Origin: Reclinomonas americana ATCC 50394
Lineage: Eukaryota
NCBI GenBank assembly: GCA_048213135.1
Contig: PS015177.1
Coordinates: 34,432 to 68,759, forward strand
Direction of reading: 5' to 3'
Length of the DNA: 34,328 nt
Below, in pieces: positions 486 to 34,302 of the stretch. Positions within the stretch are counted from its first letter, which is position 1. Each line of letters opens with the position of its first letter. The position numbers and the translations under genes were made by a program. The notes beneath the pieces were generated by a model that searched no databases, was not told the DNA's origin, and saw only the letters and a list, made by a program, of their open reading frames with translations.

Positions 486-1961
486 CTACTGGTAACGATC
501 CACCGACCACGTCATCAACAAGTGTGACAGGAACGCGCGGGCGCGGTCGGGGTCCGCCAGGCAGGCGCAAAGCTCATGGCGCTCTGCCGGCGACATGTGT
601 GACAGATGCTCCACCAGAGCCGCCGACGGAGGGGGCGGCAGCGGCATCGGTGGTGAAGCAGCTGCGGCGTCGTCGACACGACGACGCGAAGTTGGCGGCG
701 ACTCGTCGTCCACATCATCCGCGTCCATGGACGACGGCGACGCTCGCTTGTTGTTGGCGCGCCGCGCCGCACTGTCGGTCTGCGGCTTGGGCGGGCGCTT
801 NNNNNNNNNNNNNNNNNNNNNNNNNNNNNNNNNNNNNNNNNNNNNNNNNNNNNNNNNNNNNNNNNNNNNNNNNNNNNNNNNNNNNNNNNNNNNNNNNNNN
901 NNNNNNNNNNNNNNNNNNNNNNNNNNNNNNNNNNNNNNNNNNNNNNNNNNNNNNNNNNNNNNNNNNNNNNNNNNNNNNNNNNNNNNNNNNNNNNNNNNNN
1001 NNNNNNNNNNNNNNNNNNNNNNNNNNNNNNNNNNNNNNNNNNNNNNNNNNNNCTTGGCCTTGACCACAAAGGGCGACGAGTGAATGACCAGCATGCGGTG
1101 CGCGGGGTTCGCCGCATCGGCCACTGTCAGCTCCAGACGGAAGCGCGAGCCCTTGTGTCGCGACGACTGCGTGCGCAGCGTCAGCGCGCTCTCGCCCTCG
1201 TACACCGACTCGCCACTGCATCGACTCAGCGCAAACGACACGTCGCCCTGCAGCGGCGGTGGCTCGCACACCACATCAGCGCCCGTCTCCGTAATCAGCG
1301 ACACATGCACCACCGCTGAGTGTCCGCCAGGCAGCAAACTGTTCAGCCCATCCACGCGCAACAGCAGGTGCGACGAGTATGGCGCCGAGTACTGCACATC
1401 GGCACTGCAACAACGTCCGTCCATGAGCGTCCACAATGCTATTAATGCACACGCCAGACAACAACAACAACATACGCAACAGATCAGTGGAGAACTCGGT
1501 GCGCTGCTGGCGAGCCGACTTGAAGAGCACCTGGAACGGCACCGTGTAGCCTGCATGCACAAAGGAGCGTGTGAGCAACACAGTCTATTTCAGGTCGAAC
1601 ATTGTCGCGCGTCAAAGCAAAACTCACCGCCCACTAGCGTCCAGCTGCCCACCTCTCGCACAGCGGCTGGTGGTGGTGGCGGCGGTGGTGGTGGCGGTAG
1701 TGGTGGCGCACACCACACAGCAGTCGACGAGGACAAGGCGGCAGGCGGCAAACACGTGGTGGGCGGTTGCGAGGGCAAAGGCGGTGGTGGTGGCATCGAC
1801 ATCGGCAGCGCCACTAGCGGAGGCGACGCGCTTGTGAAGCCATCATCATCGTCACCAAAGCCGCCGCCAAAGCCAAAGTCGTCGTGTGGTGGTGGCGGTT
1901 GGTGATGGTGATGGTGCATGTTGGCCCACCAGCCGCCGCTGTCCAGGTCGTCGCTGTTCAT
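486..1961 (-). CDS. Putative DNA-binding protein with a CudA/p53-like Ig-fold-type domain and a His/Pro-rich N-terminus (at least 3 exons; N-gap inside)
   Basis: ATG at 1961 (MNSDDLDSGGWWANMHHHHHQPPPP...). Introns 1551-1627 (g|GTGAG..CAG) and 1405-1480 (t|GTTGCGT..CAG) join ...SWTLVGGYTVPFQVLFKS...TDLADVQYSAPY. The domain ends LTLRTQSSRHKGSRFRLELTV...VIHSSPFVVKAK, followed by basic KRPPK/KRASP. Stop is TAG at 486-488. The family call rests on remembered motif resemblance only. Confidence 0.6.
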
Positions 1962-2321
1962 CACCGAGGTGCCGCGAGAGGGTGTGTGTGTGTGTGTGTG
2001 TATAAGAAGGTGGGGTATGAATGGGTATGTGTGTCCGACTGTGGCCCGAGCTCTCCGATGCCGAAGGAAAAAATACCTGTCCACTCGTCGGGTGGATGGC
2101 GGATTCAGANNNNNNNNNNNNNNNNNNNNNNNNNNNNNNNNAGAGAGAGAGAGAGAGAGTTTCCGAGTCCTCACAAACAAGTCAAGCGCGGCGACAGCAT
2201 GTTGGAGGCGTCTGTCAGTGGTGGTCGGGATTGCGATGCAGCGAGTGCAGGAAACGCATCGACAAGGCGCCACCCGCACCGTAACCCTGCATGCGCATTC
2301 CGAACAAATCAGCTCGACACA

Positions 2322-32800: not shown

Positions 32801-34302
32801 CGAGCCGACTGCTCACCGTCATCAGTGTTCTTCTGTTCCCGAGCCGCAAACAATTCGCGTTCCAGCTGACGAATGCGATCCGCCTGCTGATCGGGTGGTG
32901 CGCGGGTGGCGGTGGAACTGTTCGTTGCCGCGGCCGCACGCAGCTGCTCGACTTGTGTGGCGAGTGCATCGCGCTGCTGCTTCATGTTGTCCAGCTCCTG
33001 CAACGTCTTCTCAAACATCTTCGTCTGCAACACTTGTCCGATGCGCGGATCGTTGCCACCGGCAGGCGTTGGCACACCGCCACCGCGAGTGACTGTGTTG
33101 GAGACTGAGCCCGTAGGCTCCGCGGCATCCGCAGCAGCCGAAGCACCAGCTGGCCTGGCCTCTGTGTGCGTACATGCGGCGATGAGATACGGTGTTGCAC
33201 AGATCGCTGTAACATGCGCGCAGCAAAGCATACACGCACCTGCGATTCCAGCAACACTGGCCACCACCGCGTCGTTGAGGAAGGAGCCCTCACCGCAACC
33301 GGTGAGAACCACGATTTCCCTGCGGTGCTTCGTGTTGACAAACACGAGGCCGTGAGAGTGTCGCGGGTCCGGCACCGCGCCCGTCACTTTCGGCCACTCC
33401 CACTTGTGCTTTGTCACGTTCAGAATCGCCACCTCGCTGTTGCACTCTTGTGCCTCGTTGGCGCCTCCAAACAGCATGAGCTGTGAGTCCGAGATGCGCA
33501 CAATGCGATGCGAGTTGCGCGGTGACGGAGGGATGCCGTCGAGTCGCAGCTCGCTCCACGTCATGGTCTTGAGGTCAAGGCGGAAGACGTCGTTGAAGTG
33601 TGTCTTCAGGTCGGTGCCTCCCACAATGTACAGCGAATCGCCAATCACCGCAGCGTCGTGATTGCCTCGCGGCGCCGGCGGCTGTCCGATGACTTCAGGC
33701 GATCCCCATCTGCACATGCCTGTGCGGAGGAGCGTGTGAGCGCGCACAGAGAGAAAGAGAAAGAGAGAGAGTAAGTGCCAGAGCGTGCTACGCAACGGAC
33801 GTCAAAGACGTGCACATCGTTGTTAAAGCTGGCGTCGAAGCCGCCAAAAAGCACCACAGTANNNNNNNNNNNNNNNNNNNNNNNNNNNNNNNNNNNNNNN
33901 NNNNNNNNNNNNNNNNNNNNNNNNNNNNNNNNNNNNNNNNNNNNNNNNNNNNNNNNNNNNNNNNNNNNNNNNNNNNNNNGCGTTGTGCCTGTCGCCGGCC
34001 ACGGAGCACGAGTGCCATCCGCGGGCCGTTGGTGCATGGCCATACCATCCACTCTGACTCCATCGGAACGTTTCGCATGAGAAGCACCACCACATCAGCA
34101 TCGCGCGCACAGCACAGATCGCGACGGTCACACACACACACACACGTGCCTGTGTCGAGGAAGAAGATATCGTCGAACCACATGCTGCCATTGCGCCCAC
34201 CAAACAGGAAGAAGCGACCATCGGGCAGTGCCGACATGGTGTGCCAGCCACGACCTGCTGGCTTGTCACCCTCGGCCTCGACGCATCGCCATTCCAGATC
34301 CT
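29877..34302 (-). CDS. Kelch-repeat / coiled-coil / CAP-Gly protein, 5' end beyond the window
   Basis: Kelch repeats PAGRGWHTM..FFLFGGRNG, PTARGWHS..VVLFGGFD, PAPRGNHDA..LYIVGGTD, PSPRNSHR..LMLFGGAN and PDPRHSHG. Coiled coil LQELDNMKQQRDALATQVEQL. Intronless CAP-Gly [45 protein letters not shown]. Ser/Pro/Arg tail exons run to TAG at 29877. Three N-gaps lie inside the gene, so continuity is inferred. Confidence 0.8.
30543..31155. repeat. Two ~120-nt (CA)n microsatellite tracts flanking a gap, inside an intron (30483-31155) of the Kelch/CAP-Gly gene
   Basis: Perfect CA runs at about 30543-30661 and 31035-31155. The intron donor cg|GTGTGT is the start of the (GT)n run on the - strand. Confidence 0.95.

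Follow-up and report, generated by a model that had tools for sequence, protein, structure and literature searches.

Pairing between U1 small nuclear RNA (snRNA) and the 5′ splice site in a shifted or bulged register has been established in humans, for sites that are rare and heterogeneous (Roca & Krainer 2009 and Roca et al. 2012, as cited in Tan et al. 2016, PMC4856993). Changes in U1 itself are described for the Archamoebae: the Entamoeba donor GUUUGU is paired by a fully complementary U1 (AACAAAC), and the Mastigamoeba U1 reads ACGUAC, pairing with a C at donor position +4, while Thecamonas and the Mamiellales keep a standard U1 despite their +4 C donors (as given in the portions of Roy & Bowser, bioRxiv 10.1101/2022.06.08.495308, that concern these lineages). 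Here we describe a class of 5′ splice site with the heptamer GTTGCGT, found beside an ordinary donor class within the same genes of Reclinomonas americana ATCC 50394. The DNA analysed, called the window throughout, is a stretch of 34,328 nucleotides (nt) from GenBank assembly GCA_048213135.1 (contig PS015177.1, positions 34,432 to 68,759 of the forward strand). Coordinates are positions within the window, the strand is given as (+) or (−), and a donor is named by the first base of its intron.

Gene models and donor sets

The window has a G+C content of about 55–60% and eight assembly gaps, and its closely packed genes are split by many short introns. Gene models were made with a dynamic-programming gene finder that needs only a GT donor and a YAG acceptor, awards a bonus for a branch-like box and trains its own codon usage. 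Run without any donor matrix, so that any GT is permitted, it yields the donor-agnostic model; the final model adds a two-component donor mixture as donor score. The final model contains 81 introns and leaves some gene parts outside the models, so that the figure of about 100 introns given in a preliminary description, in which the window had been spliced by hand, is plausible overall. Nineteen of the 81 introns have GTTGC-type donors, and one more, at 9487 (−), begins GTTTCGT. We refer to these 19 as class 2 and to the other 62, the GTTTCGT intron among them, as class 1. Forty introns come out the same whether or not the donor model is used, and these form an intersection set.

A second donor class

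The preliminary description had proposed a distinct and abundant donor class, making up about a quarter of the introns, and had listed 27 positions for it. At all 27 the motif given is present on the strand given. Nineteen are exact GTTGCGT; the others read GTTGCGC (3889 (+) and 8959 (−)), GTTGCGA (31581 (−)), GTTGCAG (24004 (+)), GTTGCAT (24605 (+)), GTTGTGT (8132 (−)) and GTTTCGT (9487 (−) and 21813 (+)). The heptamer GTTGCGT is far more frequent in the window than expected, with 24 copies on both strands compared with 8.59 ± 2.97 in dinucleotide shuffles, none of 100 shuffles reaching 24. Within gene spans it occurs 22 times in sense and once in antisense, against a sense expectation of 4.14 from an order-3 Markov model, by which it is the most over-represented non-repeat 7-mer of the coding strand. 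The hexamer GTGCGT is not enriched in the window (51 copies, 46 expected).

A mixture fitted to the donors of the donor-agnostic model resolves into nnG|GTGnGT, with a weight of 0.74, and GTTGCG, with a weight of 0.26, in agreement with the proposed quarter. Comparison with independent positional base frequencies had been put forward as a test that could tell against the class; such independence predicts about 0.15 GTTGCGT donors in the window, and there are 7 among the 68 donors of the donor-agnostic model and 16 among the 81 of the final model. Ten of the listed sites were picked by the donor-agnostic model itself: 12462 (−), 10468 (−), 8959 (−), 17752 (+), 17900 (+), 22819 (+), 24004 (+), 24265 (+), 28833 (+) and 31581 (−). 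At six further listed sites, all among the 19 class-2 sites of the final model, it chose an in-frame GT 5–21 nt away. Profile or homologue evidence, drawn from Pfam coordinates, 592 homologous PAS segments and repeat spacing, fixes ten donors, namely 12462 (−), 28833 (+), 23871 (+), 24004 (+), 24265 (+), 24605 (+), 25475 (+), 9318 (−), 8132 (−) and 33796 (−), seven of them to the codon. Altogether 22 of the 27 listed sites are supported and none is refuted; 3223 (+), 3889 (+), 20125 (+), 21813 (+) and 29993 (−) are possible only. Judged from motif statistics, gene models and protein matches, GTTGCGT is a genuine second class of 5′ splice site, in use in these genes.

Junctions fixed by domains and homologues

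Conserved protein motifs had been said to pin several of the junctions, and these assignments held in each of the domain families concerned. Two class-2 introns, at 12392..12462 (−) (GTTGCGT, 71 nt) and 28833..28917 (+) (GTTGCGT, 85 nt), both present in both models, lie in the F codon of the CAP-Gly motif P-F-GKNDG. Their flanking exons match positions 1–36 and 38–65 of Pfam CAP_GLY, with the split F codon alone remaining for position 37. The two introns are homologous: TGTTGCGTC, the branch region and GGCAG are kept, and the middle has diverged with insertions and deletions.

Three CAP-Gly genes lie within 20 kb, at 12291–12607 (−), 28361–29090 (+) and 30945–31520 (−). Two of them have in common the phase-1 intron that splits the F codon of P-F-GKNDG; in the third the domain is uninterrupted, with CAP_GLY 1–64 in one exon, which suggests that an intron was lost or gained among the paralogues. 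A homologue search with CAP-Gly sequence matched only animal CLIP3/4-like proteins.

The intron at 23871..23937 (+) (GTTGCGT, 67 nt) follows the PAS segment ...ERHDS. Among 765 tblastn high-scoring segment pairs from 153 homologues, 434 plus 131 stop at 23868 or 23871, that is, at the donor. Splicing at 23871 together with 24004 outscores the in-frame donor 23880 in 589 of 592 PAS segments and read-through in all 592. The intron at 24004..24068 (+) (variant GTTGCAG, 65 nt), found by both models, gives a better homologue alignment in 536 of the 592 segments, an equal one in 52 and a worse one in 4. The next of these introns, 24265..24334 (+) (GTTGCGT, 70 nt; both models), interrupts ...SDA|IVWAD ahead of a PAS domain; its removal beats read-through in 153 of 153 homologues, and PAS profile positions 16–42 begin at residue 3 of the following exon. 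A variant donor, GTTGCAT, at 24605..24660 (+) (56 nt) is in neither model and is supported by the homologues: of the 153, 112 give it the higher score against a GTAAAT alternative, 34 an equal score and 7 a lower one, and its wins and losses against the alternatives considered are 112:7, 109:11 and 114:4. Within the cyclase catalytic domain, the intron at 25475..25548 (+) (GTTGCGT, 74 nt; final model) is flanked by exons that match Guanylate_cyc 59–92 and 98–126, with exactly five residues for the five profile positions between.

All five of these introns belong to a large gene at 19850–26031 (+), which has about 30 introns and whose product combines membrane segments with a class III nucleotidyl cyclase domain and at least two PAS domains. 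Its first PAS domain is FixL-like, with ...ERHDSYMAHYL. The best among its homologues, giant multi-PAS proteins 1,700–5,500 amino acids long, come from metagenomes and one diplonemid transcriptome.

The remaining fixed donors lie in repeat proteins. The intron at 9260..9318 (−) (GTTGCGT, 59 nt; final model) cuts the L codon of an ankyrin T-P-L, and residues 2–24 of its downstream exon match positions 8–30 of the Ank profile, which places T-P|L|A at positions 4–7. Splicing out 8068..8132 (−) (variant GTTGTGT, 65 nt) gives NLE|AVTALIRAGAD, with the AA-to-GA spacing of the neighbouring ankyrin repeats, to which the alternative donor adds six residues. For the intron at 33720..33796 (−) (GTTGCGT, 77 nt; final model), within the Kelch repeat FDV|R|MCRW, the upstream exon matches Kelch_1 14–34 and the next repeat begins 16 residues into the downstream exon. 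Protein searches with a Kelch exon gave no homologue, a 204-residue exon gave in the ESM Atlas only leads below 0.9, and a metagenome scan was negative.

Composition of the two classes

Sixteen of the 19 class-2 donors in the final model are exact GTTGCGT. Outside the intron, G at −1 is found in 57 of 62 class-1 donors but in 1 of 19 class-2 donors (T 9, C 5, A 4). Within it, class 1 has G 40 and A 14 at +3, A 24, C 18, T 18 and G 2 at +4, G 53 at +5, T 42 at +6 and G 32 at +7; the corresponding class-2 counts are T 19, G 19, C 19, G 18 and T 16. Class 2 had been described as lacking the usual +3 purine and +5 G, and the T at +3 and C at +5 are indeed found in 19 of 19. The −1 contrast persists in the intersection set (30 of 31 in class 1 and 1 of 9 in class 2) and is therefore not a product of the trained matrix.

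Two related statements have to be revised. The common donor of the window is G|GTGNGT and not GTGCGT, which makes up 10 of the 62 class-1 donors, beside 17 with GTGAG and 9 with GTGTGT. Nor is class 2 simply GTGCGT with one extra T: class-1 donors vary among A, C and T at +4, but the equivalent class-2 position is always C, and the −1 G is avoided. None of the two copies each of GTTGAGT and GTTGGGT is used as a donor, and GTTGTGT is a donor in one of its 12 copies. When the classes are aligned with a shift of one base, class-2 positions +1 to +7 equal positions −1 to +6 of the class-1 site G|GUGCGU except for one substitution, at the second base, and class-2 position −1 resembles class-1 position −2.

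Five class-1 donors are without the −1 G. Three have a pyrimidine at +4 (10319 (−), GTGCGT; 9935 (−), GTACGT; 18766 (+), GTGTGT), one is the GTTTCGT donor at 9487 (−), and the fifth, GTAAAT at 24633 (A at +4), has probably been modelled wrongly. The +4 pyrimidines weakly fit a U1 with G opposite +4, the sites being few.

The rest of the intron

Beyond the donor the two classes resemble each other closely. All 19 modelled class-2 introns run from GT to CAG, and junctions of the class agree with profiles or homologues for CAP_GLY, PAS, Guanylate_cyc, Ank and Kelch. Median intron length is 69 nt in class 1 and 71 nt in class 2, and CAG acceptors and interior composition are alike. A motif scan for a C/T-T-C/G/A-A-C/T branch box at 8–45 nt found one in 17 of 19 class-2 and 49 of 62 class-1 introns, with the same set of motifs; the branch-like boxes CTCAC, CTGAC, CTCAT and CTGAT (CTSAY) stand about 12–26 nt out in both. 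Since lengths, acceptors and branch boxes are alike and interiors are unshared, class 2 is, as far as sequence signals tell, a set of ordinary U2-type GT–AG introns with a different and constrained 5′ signal, neither U12-like nor introners.

Pairing with U1

Duplex energies were calculated with a nearest-neighbour model. With the canonical U1 5′ end the mean is −7.13 kcal/mol for class 1 and −0.48 kcal/mol for class 2. GTTGCGT itself reaches −0.3 kcal/mol, neither register being stable, compared with −3.4 kcal/mol for the human-type GTTAAGT. Because the canonical U1 barely pairs with class 2, it is not an explanation in any register, and by these modelled energies a changed or additional U1 is likely; the invariant C of class 2 calls for a G as its partner. 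For hypothetical U1s in which G, or G and C, replace the two pseudouridines, class 2 gives −4.9 or −6.9 kcal/mol and class 1 −7.9 or −8.7 kcal/mol; a U1 exactly complementary to the heptamer at its 5′ end gives −11.0 kcal/mol for class 2 and −4.9 kcal/mol for class 1. The preliminary description had offered either an unusual register or a variant U1/U6 snRNA or recognition factor; on this modelling the variant is the more likely half. The window, searched over its 34 kb only, has no match to any Rfam family at gathering score, snRNAs included.

Interpretation and alternatives

The explanation of class 2 to which we incline, while giving it somewhat less than an even chance, is one remodelled U1 that serves two registers; both the register and the altered U1 are what we infer. 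The class-2 heptamer can be read as the best class-1 site, G|GUGCGU, in which U has replaced G at the second base. The sole GU would then lie one base further upstream, and the cut would be made there. The U1 snRNP, and later U6, would bind the same seven-base frame in both classes, class 2 being a one-base shift with a single mismatch. With that mismatch already spent, every other position, the C included, would have to pair, and the U1 5′ end would carry G (perhaps also C) in place of the canonical two pseudouridines.

Several points weigh against this explanation. A G opposite +4 in U1 predicts a preference for C in class 1, and A is the commonest base instead (24 of 62). The pairing of U6, too, would need to move one base away from the cut. 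The energies include no pseudouridine or protein terms, and the canonical U1 5′ end used is a standard 11-base motif, not the U1 of this genome. The sample is one 34-kb window with 19–25 sites, and the donor scores of the final model were trained on its own output, a circularity of which the 40-intron intersection set is free. The heptamer alone is also not sufficient, as sense-strand exonic copies at 6327 and 27741 seem to be unused; these unspliced copies suggest that it needs a downstream branch site and acceptor to act.

The exonic copy at 6327 (+) reads through as LRR-like coding sequence, and that at 27741 (+) has no suitable acceptor within 130 nt. Other copies that are not donors lie in another intron (21115), upstream of a gene (16584) and in antisense (10337).

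A rather unlikely alternative, though one to be taken seriously, is that two U1 snRNAs are at work, a canonical-like one for G|GTGNGT and a paralogue exactly complementary to GUUGCGU in the normal register, which would make class 2 a distinct donor code read by the major spliceosome. The near-invariance of all seven positions (16 of 19 exact) is as full-length pairing would have it, the want of an exon preference at −1 is as though pairing started at +1, the exact-complement 5′ end separates the classes cleanly (by the energies given above), and the A still common at class-1 +4 is accounted for. Two separate U1s, however, leave unexplained why the heptamer is one substitution away from the shifted class-1 optimum, and the loss of U6 pairing at +5 and +6 would remain; in the portions of the literature consulted no U1 class with such a separate function turned up, though no search was aimed at it. 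Less probable again, and in our view improbable, is the bulged register with a canonical U1 that the preliminary description had in mind. There G+1 and U+2 would pair, U+3 would be flipped out, and GCGU would pair like positions +3 to +6 of GTGCGT, with U1C or Luc7 adding stability. Tan et al. 2016 (PMC4856993) treat bulges at +3 (or +2) as established in human sites, and GTGCGT is among the commonest class-1 hexamers of the window (10 of 62). Yet a weaker, bulged site should keep or strengthen the −1 G, which class 2 has in 1 of 19, and GTTGAGT and GTTGTGT donors should occur in proportion to GTGAGT and GTGTGT, whereas there are none and one; nor does the canonical 5′ end form a stable bulged pairing with GTTGCGT (−0.3 kcal/mol). 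The avoidance of −1 G and the disuse of GTTGAGT and GTTGTGT thus fit the one-base-shifted frame better than a bulged U.

The two other alternatives concern the nature of the introns, and we regard both as very improbable. Class 2 might belong to an expanded and diverged minor (U12-like) spliceosome, on the pattern of Physarum, in which U12-type introns have reportedly expanded. A long, near-invariant 5′ motif without exon-side preference is typical of U12-type donors, but the class-2 motif is unlike the U12-type 5′ splice-site consensus, the branch boxes of both classes are of the same CTSAY set at the same distance, with no branch motif specific to either class, and the acceptors are identical. 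The least probable account is a mobile introner family carrying a terminal GTTGCGT, or an artefact of splicing by hand or by model. Introners typically have identical termini, and five of the listed sites are possible only; against this, an all-against-all blastn-short comparison of the 81 intron interiors gave no class-2 cluster and best matches of 11–18 nt, the best pair with a class-2 member being one with a class-1 intron, over 14 nt. Moreover, the paralogous CAP-Gly introns have diverged save at the signals, and the ten junctions fixed by profile or homologue evidence are independent of any donor model.

Other donors of the second class

The listed sites in addition to the ten fixed donors are as follows. 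On the (−) strand, 1405..1480 (GTTGCGT, 76 nt) is in the final model, with a branch-like CTCAT and a CAG acceptor, the donor-agnostic model having taken an in-frame GT 21 nt downstream. Two possible introns follow on the (+) strand. That at 3223..3312 (GTTGCGT, 90 nt) is phase 0, in frame and stop-free, and is in neither model; that at 3889..3951 (GTTGCGC, 63 nt) has an AAG as the sole frame-keeping acceptor. The AAG-ended product runs into LPDDCWRRVF, which we take to be F-box-like, and an LRR-rich protein follows; of the 81 modelled introns, 78 have CAG as their end.

A group of (−) strand introns lies between 8888 and 10468. Those at 8888..8959 (GTTGCGC, 72 nt) and 10399..10468 (GTTGCGT, 70 nt) are in both models. 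The GTTTCGT intron at 9418..9487 (70 nt) is in the final model, as are 9716..9773 (GTTGCGT, 58 nt) and 10049..10115 (GTTGCGT, 67 nt), for which the donor-agnostic model took in-frame GTs 12 nt and 15 nt downstream, respectively.

On the (+) strand, 17041..17118 (GTTGCGT, 78 nt) is in the final model, and 17752..17808 (GTTGCGT, 57 nt), 17900..17975 (GTTGCGT, 76 nt) and 22819..22893 (GTTGCGT, 75 nt) are in both. The possible intron at 20125..20194 (GTTGCGT, 70 nt), which has a TAG acceptor, is frame-compatible, the models preferring another path. At 21599..21672 (GTTGCGT, 74 nt) the final model finds a class-2 intron for which the donor-agnostic model took the in-frame GTTGCAC at 21587, 12 nt upstream; these tandem donors, in frame with each other, may add or remove four residues alternatively. 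A second GTTTCGT intron, at 21813..21893 (81 nt), is possible, being in frame and stop-free. The last two are on the (−) strand: 29917..29993 (GTTGCGT, 77 nt) is possible, with a branch-like CTTAC and a CAG acceptor and a downstream frame open for just 23 codons, and 31521..31581 (variant GTTGCGA, 61 nt) is in both models.

The following regions stand outside the intron counts. At 30500–31200 and 32690–32760 the last gene is broken by extended (GT)n/(CA)n microsatellites as well as by assembly gaps, and an E/K/R-rich low-complexity stretch at 13900–14620 has open frames on both strands.

Significance and comparison with known systems

That one major spliceosome reads two donor codes, a quarter of the introns being served by either a dedicated U1 variant or a remodelled U1 in two registers with the cut displaced by one base, is a claim we regard as doubtful but well worth holding in view. 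If it is true, recognition of 5′ splice sites in a shifted register, or by two U1s, would here exist naturally and on the scale of a genome. If class 2 extends genome-wide, thousands of introns would have an snRNA frame offset by one base from the cut, a situation known in humans only from rare, heterogeneous sites. Such a system would bear on the freedom of the U1/U6 pairing frame and on the co-evolution of snRNAs and splice signals, and the presence of two classes in the same genes would allow comparison within one genome. There is a practical side as well: class-2 junctions are misplaced by gene finders that use one donor matrix, and at 6 of the 19 sites the donor-agnostic model settled on an in-frame GT close by, so that a quarter of the introns, and with them many protein models, would be at risk.

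A literature search by literal motif showed no donor class of GTTGCGT, GTTGCG or GUUGCG among the papers listed, a text search that does not cover logos in figures or supplements. What appears to be new here, not found in print and with real uncertainty about priority, is that about a quarter of the donors share one fixed heptamer in a displaced frame, beside a normal class in the same genes.

Class 2 shares with U12-type introns its standing as a second class beside the main one, a long invariant 5′ motif and the absence of an exon-side preference; unlike them, it bears no resemblance to their motif and has the branch and acceptor signals of class 1. The Mamiellales and Thecamonas, with GYGCGY or +4 C donors, resemble the window in being GC-rich and in having GTGCG-type donors and strict C-T-G/C-A-C-like branch boxes. 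Their donors, however, form a single class in the normal register with a standard U1, and the part of Roy & Bowser that deals with them mentions no extra-T class. In the Archamoebae, as that preprint portrays them in its relevant portions, the donor is likewise atypical, and the fixed C of the window calls for the same kind of change at the U1 5′ end; theirs is one transformed consensus in nearly all introns, in contrast to the two classes within the same genes here, where the U1 change is predicted from the donors. Mastigamoeba differs further in its GUGCGC donors, 3.4 introns per gene and 137-nt introns, and the diplonemids, in the portion of PMC12621601 that covers them, differ in their (G)/GTATG donors and few YTRAY boxes.

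The human shifted and bulged sites, as far as the cited paper describes them, are like class 2 in being GT–AG sites of U2-type introns with a poor match to U1 in the normal register; they fit after a move of one base or with a bulged U, the cut still being made at the GU. But they are rare, varied and of the GTTAAGT type, and they pair with a canonical U1. The window instead has one fixed heptamer, with C at +5 and −1 G avoided, at about a quarter of its donors, and this heptamer is predicted not to pair with the canonical U1 in any register.

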